Source of the DNA: Amoebophrya sp. A120
Taxonomy: Eukaryota > Protista > Dinoflagellata
Assembly: GCA_905178155.1 (NCBI GenBank)
Contig: CAJINV010000122.1
Span: 1-5,278, forward strand
DNA: 5,278 nt
Direction: 5' to 3'
The notes under the pieces are model-generated. The model made no database searches. It was not told the origin of the DNA and was given only the letters and a program-made list of their open reading frames with translations. Positions 1 through 5,278 of this stretch are shown one piece after another (position 1 is the first letter of the stretch; every line of letters starts with the position of its first letter). Made by a program: the position numbers and the translations under genes.

Positions 1-1360
1 CAGCACCCTGCGGGACAACACGGCCGTGGTTGTTGGAATCGGTTCCGCCCGCACCATAATAGGAAGACGGATGATCATCACCCTTCTTATTCCGGTAATG
101 GTTGCTGTTGTGGTTGTATCGCCGATAACCCAATTCCATGAGTTTTTTCTGGGCGTCGTCTTCCCGATTCCCCGTTTCTCCGATCAGGGAGAGAAGGTCG
201 GTTAACGCAGAGTTTTCATTTTTCCCGGCCGGAGTAATCGAGTCTTCGCGTCGTTTTTCGTCGTAAGTGTACCGAGCAGAGTCGGCACACACGCGCTCCA
301 CTTCTTCAACGAAAGTATCGTAGTCGTATTGCAAATCCCGGATCCGGTGACTATTCAAAAGCTGGCGGGTGATGTGCGAAATACACAGCCCGCGCAATGC
401 GATTTCAATTTTTGAATTATCGGATCTCTTACTCCCCGCGAGTTCCAACTCGCGATCAAAGATCACACCCAAAAGGACTACGAATTCCTTTGGATGGAGT
501 CCATCCGGACGCACCACCATGGGAAGTTTGTTTTCGATGCCCGCCTGTACGCCCTCGCGTCGCAACGAGTAGCGTTGTTGGAGGATGATCATTTTGTCGG
601 ATAAATTCGGCCCCGATCGATCGGCAAGCGCATGATGCACGGGAGCGTTGCCAAAGGAACCCAACATCACCTTTTCGGCCAACTTGATCTGGTCCACTCC
701 CGGAAGACGCAGGAGCGTGCTTGCCCACGTGAACATTTGGGAATTCCAGCGCCGGAAGGAACTGATGTTCAACTTTGGCGGTTGTTCCAAGGTACGTAGT
801 TCTACCTTTTCGAGTTCGGTCAGCGTGGTCTTGCCCGGTTGCGGCTTAATGTCCCGGAGAGACGCCCAGTCCAACTGGTCTAATCTCTCTTCTCCCCTCT
901 GGTCAAACTTCGACTTCCGGTTCCCCTCGACTTCTTCCAGCCGACTGGCTAGCAGCTCGCACTTCTGGTTGTTTTGGTTCAGCAAATCCTGCAGCTCGGG
1001 CGACAAATTCAATGCCGCGGCGGCATGCGAGATCGAGCCCGGAGATGTAGAAGACGGAGTGCTGGCTTTGTTGTTCAGCACAGCTTCTTCGATCGGAAAA
1101 AGCTTCCGCGGAGCGACAAGCTCCGGAGACGAAGGAGCGGTCTCGCGCAGCAGGCCGGGCGGAGAACGGATGTCCCCTTTTCCGCTGGAAGCGAACATTC
1201 CATCAAAAAGATTACCATCGTAATCTTCCGCTCCGTACACCGCGGCTGTTTCTTTCCCGGGCGAATTAACGTCCAGGCCGCCATGCGTTTTCCATTCTTC
1301 TTTCGAATAGTGGACTGGAGTCAAAGTTTCTCCCGAGTGCGCGCGACGATGTTTTTCCAT
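1..1360 (-). CDS. Long 3'-truncated ORF (>=453 aa, MEKHRRAHSGETLTPVHYSKEEW...NNHGRVVPQGA); putative retrotransposon Gag-like protein
   Basis: Manual translation finds no stop from ATG 1360 to the window edge, and the frame is open from 1732. The ATG context is gcgATGg. Layout: Ser/Pro-rich N-terminus, coiled-coil-like PELQDLLNQNNQKCELLASRLEEVEG, motif PPKLNISSFRRWNSQMFTW (781-725) resembling the P..F..W...W start of LTR-retrotransposon Gag capsid domains, a helical-looking core, then an N/G/H/R-rich tail. The CDS call is solid. The Gag call is inference (about 0.4), and no zinc knuckle is in the window. Confidence 0.75.
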   Translation of the reverse strand, partial: MEKHRRAHSGETLTPVHYSKEEWKTHGGLDVNSPGKETAAVYGAEDYDGNLFDGMFASSGKGDIRSPPGLLRETAPSSPELVAPRKLFPIEEAVLNNKASTPSSTSPGSISHAAAALNLSPELQDLLNQNNQKCELLASRLEEVEGNRKSKFDQRGEERLDQLDWASLRDIKPQPGKTTLTELEKVELRTLEQPPKLNISSFRRWNSQMFTWASTLLRLPGVDQIKLAEKVMLGSFGNAPVHHALADRSGPNLSDKMIILQQRYSLRREGVQAGIENKLPMVVRPDGLHPKEFVVLLGVIFDRELELAGSKRSDNSKIEIALRGLCISHITRQLLNSHRIRDLQYDYDTFVEEVERVCADSARYTYDEKRREDSITPAGKNENSALTDLLSLIGETGNREDDAQKKLMELGYRRYNHNSNHYRNKKGDDHPSSYYGAGGTDSNNHGRVVPQGA

Positions 1361-1501
1361 CGCGACTTCGACCAACCGTTGCAACTCCTCATCGCGTGCT
1401 TTCTTCTTCTCCTTCTCCTTTATTTGATATGCCTGCGTATTGCAGATGCGATTAATGAAATCGAAGCAACAGGTTACCACTTTGTTACTTTTACTGGTAG
1501 A

Positions 1502-1539
1502 AAGTTGTAGCTTGCGAAGTTGTTTTTCGAAGTTGTAGC
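1502..1539. repeat. Short imperfect triple repeat (CG)AAGTTGT(AGC)
   Basis: AAGTTGT at 1502-1508, 1517-1523 and 1530-1536; AAGTTGTAGC at 1502-1511 and 1530-1539; CGAAGTTGT at 1515-1523 and 1528-1536. Confidence 0.65.
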
Positions 1540-1751
1540 GTAGCGGGACAAAGAAGAAAAATCCACACGGATTTCGGGACGCTGAAGAAGGTAGTTGCTT
1601 TTCACAAATGTTCCGGCTGTCTTCCACTGTAGTTGTGTGTTTTACTGTTGGCTTTCCTGGTACGAACCGACTGCTTGTTTTAGTTGAGGACGTACCGAAA
1701 ATTCCTTTTTGTTCTGCACGGTGTGTCCGAAATTATTGGACGAAACCGAAA

Positions 1752-2612
1752 TCAGCTTGCGCTGAGATAGCCTTCCGAATCTGTACGACTACTTTCGCTA
1801 GGTTGAAATTGCACGTGGCGGTGCTCGTATTCCAGCGGGTACAGTCCACGACGAACGATGTCAGGGCAGAGGTAGAAACTGCCAAGTGCGTCTTGTAGAC
1901 CGACAAACGGAGCGCCACTGTTACGAAGGTAGTTGAAGTATCGGTTTCTATTCAGATCGCCGAATCCGCTTTCTGCTTCTGGACGAATAAGAGGATCCGC
2001 TATGCCATCAAAATTTTCTTCCTCCGGTTGGTTGTCGTATACCGTACGGAAACTGGGACGAGGAGTTAACGGGCGAATGCACCGGTAAGCCACGAAATTC
2101 AGGTCGTGGGGCTTTGTCCAGGCGTAGTATCCGTGGCGGTTTTTATTGGACGGATGGTTCCTGTTGAGGACGATCAAGCAACTCTTCGAAAAGAACGCAA
2201 TATGCTGATGGTTGCAGGCAAATGCAGCTTCTTCCTCCGGCAAGATTTGTTTTGCGCTGTGCGTCGGAAGTAATTCTGCGTATTCCAGCAGAGCGACCGT
2301 GACCAGCTTCTTCTTGCCTTCTCCTCTTCTAGGACGCAGCTGCGGTAGAACTACCAGAGCTTCTACTCCAGACCAGTGCAAAAATTGCAAGATGTGCGCG
2401 CCCAGAATTGTTTCGTAGTTTCCTACTGTTCCGACCAAGGACCTTGCTGCGAAACCGGACTTCAAATATTCCTGCGGTCCTGTTTTAGCAAGACCAGCGG
2501 GAAGCTGGTGTCGACGGTGCTGGTGCAGATCGTGAAGCTGTTTAAAGGCAGGGCTCTCGCAAAGACAATAAACTGGTTCGTTAATTTCTGCCGTAAGGGC
2601 TAAATTACCCAT
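1752..2612 (-). CDS. Hypothetical protein, 286 aa (ORF3)
   Basis: ATG-to-TGA ORF, co-oriented with ORF2 and 15 nt downstream of it. It has no internal Met. The N-terminus has NEPVYCLC followed by a His cluster. No family recognised. Confidence 0.65.
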   Translation of the reverse strand: MGNLALTAEINEPVYCLCESPAFKQLHDLHQHRRHQLPAGLAKTGPQEYLKSGFAARSLVGTVGNYETILGAHILQFLHWSGVEALVVLPQLRPRRGEGKKKLVTVALLEYAELLPTHSAKQILPEEEAAFACNHQHIAFFSKSCLIVLNRNHPSNKNRHGYYAWTKPHDLNFVAYRCIRPLTPRPSFRTVYDNQPEEENFDGIADPLIRPEAESGFGDLNRNRYFNYLRNSGAPFVGLQDALGSFYLCPDIVRRGLYPLEYEHRHVQFQPSESSRTDSEGYLSAS

Positions 2613-2627
2613 GCGCTACTGCCGTTC

Positions 2628-3143
2628 CTAGTTCTCTGGCTCGGGTTCAAAATCCCAGCTGCGGCACGTAGTCGCGTTTTTGTATCCGGATAGGGAGAGC
2701 GGGTGCGTTTTGTACTGGTCTGCTTGTAGAATTCGCTTCGTAGGAATGTGCTGCGGAATCAATTCTACTTCTTGGGCGGTTGGTCCTAGCGAGATATCCA
2801 GGAAGTTGTATTTCTCGCCAAGCTTGACGTTGCAAAAAGCGTAGTGCAAACTGCCGGCGCGGCTGAACCAAACTGCTAGTGGTGCGAAGCGAGCGGCAAT
2901 TCGAATTTCCAAGAAGTGAAATGCAGTGAAACACTCCTCGGCGTAGAATCGTTCAAGGGATTTCTGCTTTTTCCTATCTTTGTTCCTCCACCGGAGATGT
3001 TCACAGCCCCCGGACTGACAACGAAGGACACAGAGTTCGTGCTGGATTGTATCTAGAATCCAGATGGCGTTTTTGTTTCTTCTTCCGGTTTTATCTTTCA
3101 CCCACCGGCTCAACGGTTTCTCACCAATTATCTCCCACCACAT
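2628..3143 (-). CDS. Hypothetical basic protein, 171 aa (ORF2)
   Basis: The ATG lies 7 nt after the RING ORF stop and is the only minus-strand ATG in any frame across the ORF. It has a Cys/His cluster HELCVLRCQSGGCEH and a basic patch RWRNKDRKKQK. No family recognised. Confidence 0.55.
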   Translation of the reverse strand: MWWEIIGEKPLSRWVKDKTGRRNKNAIWILDTIQHELCVLRCQSGGCEHLRWRNKDRKKQKSLERFYAEECFTAFHFLEIRIAARFAPLAVWFSRAGSLHYAFCNVKLGEKYNFLDISLGPTAQEVELIPQHIPTKRILQADQYKTHPLSLSGYKNATTCRSWDFEPEPEN

Positions 3144-3150
3144 AAAAGGT

Positions 3151-4596
3151 TCAAGCCGTGAAGTTTTGTATTAAACTATTGACCAATTCCCTGCAAATCG
3201 GACAGCGCGCGTCGTGTTGCAAAGCCCGCTCTGCGCAAGGAATACAACAGACGGCATGTCCCGTGCGACCGTGTACAAATGTGGCGTCGGACTCAACTTC
3301 CATACACACAATGCATGGATTATGCAGTCGGTGTGATGCAGTAGAGTGGGCAGGAGACGGTGGTGGAATCGGAGTGCGGTACTGGTTCAACGAAGAGCTG
3401 TTGTTGTTTACTTGTCTCGGTGAAATCAAACCCTGCACTACTCGGCTGAAAAAACCCCCGCGAGACGGAGATGACTGCTCGATTTCGTTTAAAGAGCTGG
3501 CAGCTTCAGGCAAGGCTGAAACAGGATTCGAACTGCTGCTGCTCTGTTCCTGACGCTGTTGTTCTTGTCGTGCACGAAGATCGGCAATCAAAATGCGCTG
3601 TCTCTCGATAGCAGCCGGGTTGTCTCTAAACGGTTGGTCAGACAGACGAGCGGCTTGTTGCTGTAAGCCGAAAGTTTCCTGTAGAAATTGTGCTGCTCGG
3701 CCGTTTTGGAAATGGAGGACTCTTGCTTGACGGTTTCGTTCCTGTTCTAATTCCTGCAAGCGAGTAAACTGACGATCGGCCAAATTTTCTATTGTTGTCT
3801 CCGTCGTGGCGTTTTGTGCCGGATTTTCCACCGCAGCTTCCTCGGCAATAGCAGCAATTCTGTCGCGCGGAGTGTATTCGGGTTCTTCACGGCGCGGTAA
3901 AATTGTTCTCCAGGAAGGGTCTCTTCGTTCGCGCTGCAGACGGTGTCTCTCGCTCTCCTGGTTTATTTCAAAAAATGTCCGTGGATTTTGTTGATTTCCC
4001 CAGAATGCGGGAAGACGGTCTGCCGGTCCTGGTACTGCTCTGTCTGCTCTGCTCGGTGTTACGACTTGACAAAAGCGCGGATGCTCGTACAAAAACGTGT
4101 CCACGTCGAGATTGCGGCGTGCCGTATTTTGTATTCTTTCCTCTGCAGCCGTGCGGTCCAAAAACACAGTCAGAGCTTCTCGATCACCAATGACGTTCGT
4201 GAAGTTGTGGCTGATATCGTTGGAATTTCGTTCTATTAGATCCCGGAGATCGTCGCCGTCTAAGAGTTGTCTTGCCCCTCTCACTACTTGTGCTGGTTGA
4301 CCGGTGCGAAAGCGACGGTAGTTTGGGAAGCGAAGATCTGGACGGTTCACCAAGTTGCAGTACTGAATGGAGCCGATCAGATCGCGTTCTCCGCTTGGTA
4401 GATAGTTGATGTGCCGGTCGATAATAATTATCACTCCTCTTCTCCAGTGTCGTTGATGCCAAACAGGTTCAAGATTTCGGATATCCGTGTGCAATTGCTC
4501 GAGATTCAGGTAGTTATAAAGTAAGCCGTTCTCGATGGTAACAGTAGGCGGAAAGTAATCGTGACGTGGTTGATCAGGAGCTTGCTGGTTTTGCAT
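3151..4596 (-). CDS. RING-finger protein, putative E3 ubiquitin ligase with C-terminal MDM2/MDM4-type RING, 481 aa (ORF1)
   Basis: The first in-frame ATG is 4596 (MQNQQAPDQ); the track uses TTG 4668, which directly follows a TGA. Architecture: unknown ~200-aa N-terminal region, Q/E/R-rich coiled-coil-like middle, Ser/Pro-rich linker and terminal RING. Confidence 0.9.
   Translation of the reverse strand: MQNQQAPDQPRHDYFPPTVTIENGLLYNYLNLEQLHTDIRNLEPVWHQRHWRRGVIIIIDRHINYLPSGERDLIGSIQYCNLVNRPDLRFPNYRRFRTGQPAQVVRGARQLLDGDDLRDLIERNSNDISHNFTNVIGDREALTVFLDRTAAEERIQNTARRNLDVDTFLYEHPRFCQVVTPSRADRAVPGPADRLPAFWGNQQNPRTFFEINQESERHRLQRERRDPSWRTILPRREEPEYTPRDRIAAIAEEAAVENPAQNATTETTIENLADRQFTRLQELEQERNRQARVLHFQNGRAAQFLQETFGLQQQAARLSDQPFRDNPAAIERQRILIADLRARQEQQRQEQSSSSSNPVSALPEAASSLNEIEQSSPSRGGFFSRVVQGLISPRQVNNNSSSLNQYRTPIPPPSPAHSTASHRLHNPCIVCMEVESDATFVHGRTGHAVCCIPCAERALQHDARCPICRELVNSLIQNFTA
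3154..3315 (-). other. C2H2C4 (MDM2/MDM4-class) RING domain with 13-residue C-terminal tail
   Basis: CIVCMEVESDATFVHGRTGHAVCCIPCAERALQHDARCPICRELVNSLIQNFTA has the spacing C-x2-C-x10-H-x4-H-x3-C-x2-C-x10-C-x2-C, as in MDM2/MDM4 RINGs. Confidence 0.92.
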
Positions 4597-4642
4597 ACGT
4601 CGCGCTGGAGGTAAAAAAATTTTTGGTAGTATCTGCTTCTTT

Positions 4643-4750
4643 TTAACACGCGGATCGAACGAAGGCAATCATTTCGTCGATACCAAGGTTTATTGTTTTT
4701 CTTGCTTCTTCTAGTTGATCGACAATGAAATCTTGCAGCGCGGAAAGCAT
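4643..4750 (-). CDS. Small ORF, 35 aa (MLSALQDFIVDQLEEARKTINLGIDEMIAFVRSAC); possible micropeptide or uORF
   Basis: Runs from ATG 4750 to TAA 4645-4643 with a second in-frame ATG at 4672. It shows amphipathic-helix periodicity and ends 46 nt before the ORF1 ATG. It is below the ORF-track length cutoff. Confidence 0.4.
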   Translation of the reverse strand: MLSALQDFIVDQLEEARKTINLGIDEMIAFVRSAC

Positions 4751-4756
4751 AAAATT

Positions 4757-4800
4757 AGACAAAAATCACCTGGGTGATTTGTCTTTACAGACAAAATCAC
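4757..4800. repeat. Three copies of AGAC(A)3-5TCAC in direct-inverted-direct orientation
   Basis: AGACAAAAATCACC at 4757-4770; GGTGATTTGTCT at 4773-4784 (reverse complement AGACAAATCACC); AGACAAAATCAC at 4789-4800. Confidence 0.8.
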
Positions 4801-4889
4801 TTTCCTGCTTCTTGCTCAGCACAAACTGGTGCGGTATGTACGACAGGTAGTACTTGCTGCTCTTCGGTTTTCGACGTGACGGAGGTTTA

Positions 4890-5176
4890 CTAGGCTCTGG
4901 GGCTCACCATACCAGAAATGGATCACAGTCCGATTCTGTAATGCGTGAACAACCGACAGAGATTCACCGATGAAACGACGTAGACGACGACGCGACGGAC
5001 GACGGACACCGGACGTATGGACGACGACACCGATGAGAAATCAGTTCGTCTTCTCCACAATGACCATACGATTTTGTTGAAGAATAATTTTTCACACGAA
5101 GTGAAAATCACGACCGAGTTGACCGATGATTTTGATTTTAGTTTTAGTTGTACAAGCGCAAGAGAAAAGCCGCCAT
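4890..5176 (-). promoter_or_regulatory. Putative leader with short uORFs
   Basis: Each minus-strand ATG here opens a tiny ORF: MAAFLLRLYN* at 5176-5144, MVIVEKTN* at 5067-5041 and MVSPRA* at 4910-4890. Whether the region is transcribed is unknown. Confidence 0.25.
4965..5036. repeat. GAC/GGAC-rich low-complexity tract bracketed by the direct repeat CACCGATGA
   Basis: CACCGATGA at 4965-4973 and 5028-5036, with GACGAC/GGAC units between them. A third ACCGATGA is at 5122-5129. Confidence 0.6.
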
Positions 5177-5278
5177 ATCCCGTAAAAATGCAATAGAATT
5201 GCAAGATAGACGATCCGGAAAGGAAGGTCGTTTGTTATTTTTTGGATATTTTTCCTTGCGGGTACAGTGAGAAAAAAG

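Follow-up and report, generated by a model that had tools for sequence, protein, structure and literature searches.

Strand-specific AUG depletion ahead of gag in a copia-like LTR retrotransposon and its bearing on long-distance leaky scanning

In this study, we show that AUG is selected against in the 5' half of a copia-like LTR retrotransposon. The depletion is confined to the sense strand, holds in all frames and ends at gag; only a segment encoding a RING domain is excepted. This half element makes up the window, by which we mean the whole stretch of DNA analysed (5,278 nucleotides), and all features described below lie on its minus strand. With moderate confidence we consider it the best reading that ribosomes scan leakily along about 3.1 kb of a single mRNA. 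In the most far-reaching form of this reading, ORF0, an E3 ligase of MDM2 type, ORF2, ORF3 (which may derive from a transposase) and Gag or Gag-Pol, five proteins in all, would come from one capped RNA by continuous scanning over more than 3 kb that ends on a GUG; this form is tentative and as a whole rather doubtful.

Results

Going beyond the initial annotation of this DNA, sequence comparison identifies a copia-like element with a putative LTR end at 4910, followed by a primer-binding-like site, ORF0, ORF1, ORF2, ORF3 and gag. The window begins inside the LTR, so that 4910-5278 would represent the 3' part of the 5' LTR. Two contigs match the window at 4910 and above and diverge beyond (consensus agreement 0.58); this boundary is read as the LTR end because the unlike sequence of the two contigs resembles the flanks of a 3' LTR or a solo LTR. 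The putative end reads ...GGTA and not the usual CA. Directly after it comes a primer-binding-site-like sequence beginning with TGG (4895-4909), which we take to resemble the 3' ends of eukaryotic tRNA-Trp, and the junction of the two carries a 6-codon uORF (4890-4910) with a strong start (-3 G, +4 G). A pararetroviral ribosome shunt is not supported: the element has the 6-codon uORF but lacks a stable hairpin behind it, since the leader from 4915 to 4590 folds no better than shuffled versions (z -0.14; 43 of 100 are equally stable). Rfam gave no match. ORF0 (4643-4750; 35 aa), possibly a small protein, has a weak start and no family match; three of its six variants are synonymous against 2.2 expected, a comparison that does not discriminate. 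Eight nucleotides before the ATG of ORF1, a T-run with AG (4605-4620) resembles a splice acceptor and is a candidate trans-splice or splice site, its AG ranking fifth among the 316 minus-strand AGs by upstream pyrimidines.

Concerning the long upstream frames, ORF1 (3151-4596; 481 aa; weak start) carries at its C-terminus an MDM2/MDM4-type RING, which makes it a putative ligase: PF13920 is matched with an E of 2e-8, and residues 423-480 match MDM4/MDM2 RING chains with an E of 3e-10. For residues 1-330 no relatives were found among family profiles or by a word-based protein search; the latter has low sensitivity, since it missed the Gag alignment although the members lie in its collection. ORF2 (2628-3143; 171 aa; no internal ATG; very weak start) begins 5 nt after the ORF1 stop and has no family or look-alike in Pfam, NCBIfam, PHROGs, PDB sequences or the Atlas. 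ORF3 (1752-2612; 286 aa; moderate start) begins 13 nt after the ORF2 stop, and its single out-of-frame ATG, at 2008, opens a 2-codon uORF. ORF3 is under purifying selection, 11 of its 18 changes between copies being synonymous against 5.5 expected (p 0.005). Searches of Pfam, NCBIfam, PHROGs, PDB sequences and plasmids gave no useful match to ORF3, the word-based search with its low sensitivity gave nothing, and the structure model is unusable (pLDDT 30). A weak lead points to DDE_Tnp_4 (PIF/Harbinger) transposases, with an Atlas feature score of 0.85 at below-threshold recognition and 10 of the 10 best Atlas family matches in the DDE_Tnp_4 family or clan. Known motifs together with this one weak lead hint that ORF2 and ORF3 might be a Harbinger Myb and transposase pair.

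Between 1393 and 4593 the minus strand holds six ATGs (3316, 3303, 3257, 3143, 2612 and 2008) and the plus strand 34, reproducing the earlier counts; a recount likewise agrees on 16 internal ATGs in the gag-like ORF and one internal Met in ORFs 1-3. The expectation of about 50 ATGs drawn from a uniform rate of 1/64 was too high. Dinucleotide shuffles put the fair value for the minus strand at 31.8±4.5, and 0 of 2000 fell to six or fewer. The longest gap free of ATG in all frames spans 1277 nt (4593-3317). As a control for the post-hoc choice of interval boundaries, 1500 windows were simulated and any 3201-nt stretch on either strand was admitted; the minimum ATG count was 12 and the longest ATG-free gap 1094 nt. 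Observed ATGs thus amount to about 0.19 of expectation.

The depletion also survives synonymous and codon-order shuffling. When ORFs 1-3 were shuffled with the proteins preserved, out-of-frame ATG numbered 3 against 17.6±3.1 (0 of 5000 as low), and ATG was the most depleted out-of-frame trinucleotide (z -4.7); the gag control gave 10 against 10.4. Codons for Asp, Asn, His and Tyr that precede G divide NAT:NAC as 2:32, compared with 50:74 elsewhere (p 6e-5) and 9:11 in gag. Internal Met occupies 1 of 935 codons in ORFs 1-3 versus 2.3% in related Gags. The avoidance covers Met codons as well as out-of-frame AUG, which means that the choice among synonymous codons works against AUG. Taken separately, the bodies of ORF1 and of ORF2 are depleted, and so is ORF3 with the spacer behind it (0 of 2000 shuffles each), the last with 1 ATG against 9.8 expected. 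No depletion is seen in the RING segment (3330-3151; 3 against 4.3), and none of significance in LTR plus leader (5 against 8.8; 166 of 2000 shuffles) or in the spacer by itself (0 against 1.9; 246 of 2000). Three of the four internal ATGs lie within 60 nt (chance p 0.004), forming a cluster in the RING segment (3257-3316) with out-of-frame uORFs of 7 and 28 aa and one in-frame Met. The 16 ATGs of gag, all after 1360, show no depletion. A predicted scarcity of CUG, GUG and ACG in strong context is absent from ORFs 1-3 (19 against 12.5). In a second copy the ATG at 2008 is missing, and none has been gained in 1393-4593 among 47 listed differences; with 1.8 gains expected the probability of none is 0.16, which lends weak support. 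Three raw RNA runs with a matching species label yielded no reads of the element, nor did a contig set presumed to derive from RNA contain it, results that do not bear on expression. DNA of a diverged relative was found in none of the viral and metagenome contigs scanned.

The spacer between ORF3 and gag is free of ATG over its 359 nt (1393-1751). Its gag frame is open from 1732 and contains two GTGs in strong context, at 1627 and 1480, the latter with A at -3 and G at +4. Behind GTG 1480, 32 residues align gap-free with residues 2-33 of the Gag relatives P0001 and P0025, which begin MCCFDF, and 0 of 500 shuffles score as high; a likeness between the 1627-1480 stretch and N-termini of the MGNACG type is not significant (53 of 500). 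With its Cys-Cys motif and helix (6-48 in the Gag model), the stretch 1361-1480 is likely the true Gag N-terminus. Against this, only one of six variants in the 40 codons after GTG 1480 is synonymous, with no synonymous excess. Two features here were not in the initial annotation: a conserved Gag N-terminus upstream of the first AUG, and the out-of-frame ATG at 1392. At 1392 normal ATG density resumes with a 23-codon uORF (1321-1392; -3 G), whose span takes in position 1360, the first AUG in frame with gag. AUG 1392 would shield 1360, so the Gag start should lie upstream of 1392, where homology begins, and is likely GUG 1480.

That the downstream frame is gag is borne out by 24 relatives, which come from Amoebophrya (best E 2e-22), and by the capsid fold of the model. 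The gene (1-1480) is cut by the window end, and its capsid domain lies at about 793-281. The model aligns with PNMA2 (Z 8.8, rmsd 5.6, 161 aligned), the Drosophila Copia capsid (Z 8.7, rmsd 4.9, 164 aligned) and Ty1 CA-CTD (Foldseek probability 0.93, E 0.68), and structural ranks 1-15 hold nothing but capsid folds of retroelements or retroviruses. Gag is therefore predicted to fold like retrotransposon capsids, a fold that alone does not split copia from gypsy. One relative, P0016, appears to have the copia pol order PR-IN-RT-RNase H, as judged from known motifs and weak Pfam matches (rve E 0.066, RVT_2 E 0.006); pol of the present element would lie beyond the window end.

Discussion

According to the leaky scanning that we favour, ribosomes would load near ORF1 on one capped RNA, either entering at the LTR cap and reinitiating once past the 6-codon uORF, or arriving by way of a spliced leader added at AG 4605. 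Part of them would initiate at each weak AUG and the remainder scan onward; reinitiation would follow the three short internal uORFs. The scanning ribosomes would then cross about 3.1 kb nearly free of AUG and start Gag, likely at GUG 1480. No start of ORF0-3 has a purine at -3 (-3/+4 are T/C, C/C, T/T and C/G, respectively). Judged by the Symbiodinium start consensus RCCAUGG (PMC6027434), a yardstick that may not be the host's own, these apparently weak contexts fit leaky scanning. The scanned region has no excess RNA structure (mean z +0.22). The purge of ORF3 and spacer would be useful only if gag downstream is reached by scanning. What stands of the leaky scanning first proposed is strand-specific selection on AUG together with weak start contexts; the single unspliced mRNA, like ribosome entry, reinitiation and the GUG start, is something that we infer. 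Against it, ribosomes would pass about seven AUGs and then start on a GUG, which should keep Gag scarce, although large amounts of this protein are usually required. Three AUGs in the RING segment are also retained although avoidable or partly so, and near-cognate starts in strong context are not depleted in ORFs 1-3.

The main rival, unlikely in our judgement, is a set of nested mRNAs made by adding a spliced leader at several loosely chosen AGs or by scattered internal starts. Each RNA would be scanned only partly, and the AUG purge would let it translate the next ORF after a long partial scan. Amoebophrya, a parasitic marine dinoflagellate and the likely host lineage, is described as trans-splicing, with many non-canonical introns, and evidence for polycistronic mRNA is not reported there (PMC7789003). 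Acceptor-like sites do lie before ORF1 and 13 nt before GTG 1480 (rank 34 of 316), and nested mRNAs would solve the problem of low Gag yield. However, no acceptor-like AG stands just before ORF2 or ORF3, where the nearest rank 57-298 of 316, and precise acceptors would neither need purged ORF bodies nor give weak start contexts a purpose. Scanning might also serve ORFs 1-3 only, with Gag made from a separate RNA in which splicing has fused the strong AUG of the LTR end to the Cys-Cys N-terminus; this we hold to be quite improbable. A donor-like GTGAG follows ATG 4910, which shares a 4-nt repeat with 1479-1476, and a non-canonical join would be in frame. Moreover, non-canonical introns make up over 60% of the total in two Amoebophrya strains, and the Gag relatives have a Met start at the equivalent position. 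Yet GT-AG ends occur in no register of this join, the 4-nt repeat is at chance level, and the loss of ATGs from ORF3 and spacer would be left unexplained.

Still less credit is due to termination-reinitiation coupling ORF1 to ORF2 to ORF3, with scanning across the last spacer only. The stop-to-start gaps of just 5 and 13 nt would suit such coupling, which is known from caliciviruses and non-LTR elements, but the main signal, AUG-free ORF bodies and nearly Met-free proteins, is not required by it. A non-translational cause (composition, codon bias, or avoidance of a DNA or RNA motif) is largely refuted and hardly tenable: GCC and CCC deviate too (z -3.5 each), but the depletion is specific to one strand, absent in gag, seen in Met codons and outside the reading frame alike, and outlasts all three kinds of shuffle.

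If leaky scanning is right, the element would be a natural benchmark for how far eukaryotic ribosomes scan and how many ORFs they cross. It would be a scanning polycistron of more than three times the RTBV distance, in a lineage reported without evidence for polycistronic mRNAs (PMC7789003), and would equip a copia element with an accessory module like those of viruses. In the manner of complex viruses, an LTR element could then place whole accessory genes before gag and need no new promoters. That a copia element carries a RING of MDM2 type suggests ubiquitin-based host manipulation. AUG purging itself would be a simple sequence signature for locating such elements.

Comparison with known systems

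The pregenomic RNA of RTBV and badnaviruses (Caulimoviridae) carries consecutive long AUG-free ORFs with weak or non-AUG starts before the capsid/RT ORF (PMC5902531), and the present element likewise has AUG-depleted upstream ORFs, weak starts and a normal last ORF. In RTBV the scan covers 900 nt over two ORFs, as compared to about 3.1 kb and three ORFs here, and the non-AUG start is at the first ORF, whereas here it is likely at the last, gag. In contrast to RTBV, there is no shunt hairpin, the element is an LTR retrotransposon and the host is likely an alveolate. Gags of Ty1/copia elements (Pseudoviridae) from Amoebophrya sp. AT5.2 are 25-33% identical and share the N-terminal Cys motif and the capsid fold; they are annotated with AUG starts, while the start here is likely GUG.

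Accessory ORFs between LTR and gag are common to our element and the MDG1 group of Ty3/gypsy (412, mdg1, Stalker, Blood), in which sORF1 and sORF2 lie upstream of gag on a full-length unspliced RNA; neither 'leaky' nor 'AUG' occurs in the main text of that paper (10.1101/2025.03.14.642691). The MDG1 elements are gypsy elements with two small ORFs, in contrast to the three ORFs and 938 codons here, which include the MDM2-type RING. For copia elements and for dinoflagellates, an open-access literature search returned no description of an arrangement like that of our element. Bicistronic nuclear genes of green algae (PMC11291117) combine a weak ORF1 context, ATG depletion before ORF2 and leaky scanning. 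Their depletion, to about 0.43-0.49 of expectation with a small ORF1, is milder than the value of about 0.19 found here across 3.2 kb and no fewer than four cistrons.

Results

AUG depletion on the sense strand

The depletion of AUG on the sense strand is a real feature of the element. All ATG counts of the initial annotation were borne out on recounting, with 6 on the minus and 34 on the plus strand in 1393-4593; the low minus-strand count stands, whereas the expectation of about 50 drawn from a uniform rate has to give way to 31.8±4.5, and 0/2000 dinucleotide shuffles reach 6. As a control for boundaries chosen post hoc, 1500 simulated windows were scanned, and no equal-length stretch in them contained fewer than 12 ATGs. 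When the encoded proteins are kept constant, ORFs 1-3 contain 3 out-of-frame ATGs vs 17.6±3.1 expected (0/5000 shuffles), as compared to 10 vs 10.4 in the gag control. NAT codons are shunned specifically before G (NAT:NAC 2:32 vs 50:74 elsewhere, p 6e-5); the ratio before G in gag is 9:11. Methionine takes up a single one of the 935 codons of ORFs 1-3 vs 2.3% in the 25 Gag relatives (P0001-P0025).

The ORF1 body holds 0 ATG vs 11.4 expected, the ORF2 body 0 vs 6.0, and ORF3 together with the spacer (1751-1393) 1 vs 9.8, the 359-nt spacer by itself being too short for a depletion call. No ATG depletion is seen in the RING segment (3330-3151), in LTR and leader or in gag, and strong-context near-cognate start codons are not depleted. 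Conservation in other copies, proposed as a check, finds weak support in a second copy, where ATG 2008 is lost and none is gained in 1393-4593 among the differences listed, but just 1.8 gains would be expected. Scans of viral and metagenome contigs brought up no DNA from a diverged relative. Three of the four internal ATGs are grouped within 60 nt at 3316-3257 (minus strand) in the RING segment (p 0.004). A start at the in-frame ATG among them would yield a 50-aa RING fragment. This cluster may reflect a recent gene capture awaiting purge or a regulatory trap ahead of ORF2.

Upstream ORFs

The leader carries, on the minus strand, a 6-codon uORF and ORF0 (4750-4643, 35 codons). The 35 aa that ORF0 encodes resemble an amphipathic helix; the other copy has lost the internal ATG 4672 and carries a new out-of-frame ATG at 4677. 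ORF1 (4596-3151, minus strand, 481 aa) ends in a C-terminal MDM2/MDM4-type RING (E 3e-10). For ORF2 (3143-2628, 171 aa) and ORF3 (2612-1752, 286 aa) no family was found in Pfam, NCBIfam, PHROGs and PDB sequences. A language model (Atlas) gives a weak lead from ORF3 to DDE_Tnp_4 transposases, with no Pfam match, and short stretches at 2240-1833 (minus strand) presumably resemble Harbinger-type transposases; ORF3 is possibly a dead transposase derivative. Variant counts between copies rest on 72 of 110 differing places. Among the differences listed, 11 of 18 in ORF3 are synonymous vs 5.5 expected (p 0.005), which, as far as these variants go, shows purifying selection on ORF3; 3/7 in ORF1 and 1/4 in ORF2 are numbers too small to judge selection.

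Gag and class of the element

For Gag, the last ORF, 24 relatives were identified, which share 25-33% identity with it; of 10 checked, nine belong to Amoebophrya sp. AT5.2 and the tenth, from a transcriptome, clusters with a protein of AT5.2. This makes a Syndiniales dinoflagellate the likely host. Residues 230-400 of a Gag model built from the 24-row alignment match the capsids of PNMA2 (Z 8.8) and Drosophila Copia (Z 8.7), and structure-match ranks 1-15 are all capsids; Foldseek ranked Ty1 CA-CTD third, with nothing under E 0.001. In the relative P0016, Gag is followed by what we take, from weak matches and characteristic motifs, to be protease, integrase, RT and RNase H in copia order. Most likely, the element is a copia element whose pol lies outside the window. 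Many of the 25 relatives have long coiled coils ahead of the capsid domain. Gly at position 2 in 14/25 and Cys within the first 8 residues in 15/25 suggest a membrane-targeting lipidation, which is unusual for copia Gag.

Position 4910 appears to be the LTR end, since two contigs of sequencing run X1 diverge there from the window into unlike sequence. TGG follows directly, in the position expected of a primer-binding site. The apparent LTR 3' end (4910-4914, minus strand) reads GGTA, not CA, and the junction with the primer-binding site creates an ATG in strong context, with a donor-like GTGAG after it. At least two copies of the element are represented in X1, with long identical runs broken by patches that differ by several percent. 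Across 1-5278 this mosaic consists of identical stretches of 300-650 nt and short patches about 5-7% different, and suggests recombination between two lineages.

Gag start

The gag reading frame is uninterrupted by stops from 1732 on, but its earliest AUG is at 1360. The purge stops at 1392 with an out-of-frame AUG, whose 23-codon uORF overlaps 1360. Because AUG 1392 would harm a start at 1360, Gag likely starts upstream of 1392 at a non-AUG codon. MCCFDF is the N-terminal sequence of three Gag relatives; for two of these, a gap-free alignment of 32 residues to the window begins at 1471 (0/500 shuffles). Three codons upstream is GTG 1480, in a strong context (A at -3, G at +4), and 1627 has another GTG of this kind. 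Against a start at GUG 1480, 1 of 6 changes in the next 40 codons is synonymous among the differences listed. The most stable local RNA fold of the window (1318-1199, minus strand; z -3.1 vs 30 shuffles) sits just inside gag, past AUGs 1392 and 1360.

Discussion

On sequence evidence, we consider it fairly probable that the ORFs and gag are translated from one mRNA by leaky scanning. The strongest point is that purging ORF3 and the spacer helps only if gag is reached by scanning through them. None of the ORF0-3 starts has a purine at -3; the start consensus for Symbiodinium, a dinoflagellate other than the host, is RCCAUGG (PMC6027434). Ribosomes could load at a capped 5' end within the LTR and reinitiate past the 6-codon uORF, or they could enter on a spliced leader joined at an acceptor-like AG 8 nt ahead of ORF1 (rank 5/316); folding of the leader revealed no shunt hairpin.

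Scanning along one mRNA past seven AUGs to a GUG start would yield little Gag. Moreover, trans-splicing and many non-canonical introns are described for Amoebophrya, and the available text of PMC7789003 reports that evidence for polycistronic mRNA is lacking. For these reasons we retain a nested set of trans-spliced RNAs, which seems unlikely, and a spliced RNA for gag, which is more doubtful still; the purge of ORF3 and spacer speaks for scanning.

Extra ORFs ahead of gag are already known as sORFs in MDG1 elements (10.1101/2025.03.14.642691), and those of plant elements lie mostly after pol (PMC7264820). The available parts of PMC12130899, PMC5408684 and 10.1101/2025.01.17.633476 do not describe the present arrangement, and searches of the open-access literature yielded neither a copia element nor a dinoflagellate element of this kind. 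In rice tungro bacilliform virus (RTBV), over 900 nt (PMC5902531), and in green-algal bicistrons (PMC11291117), long ORFs that lack AUG and open with weak starts are a leaky-scanning signature that has been tested. The element is not a caulimovirid, but in its working mode it would be alike to the pregenome of RTBV and the badnaviruses.
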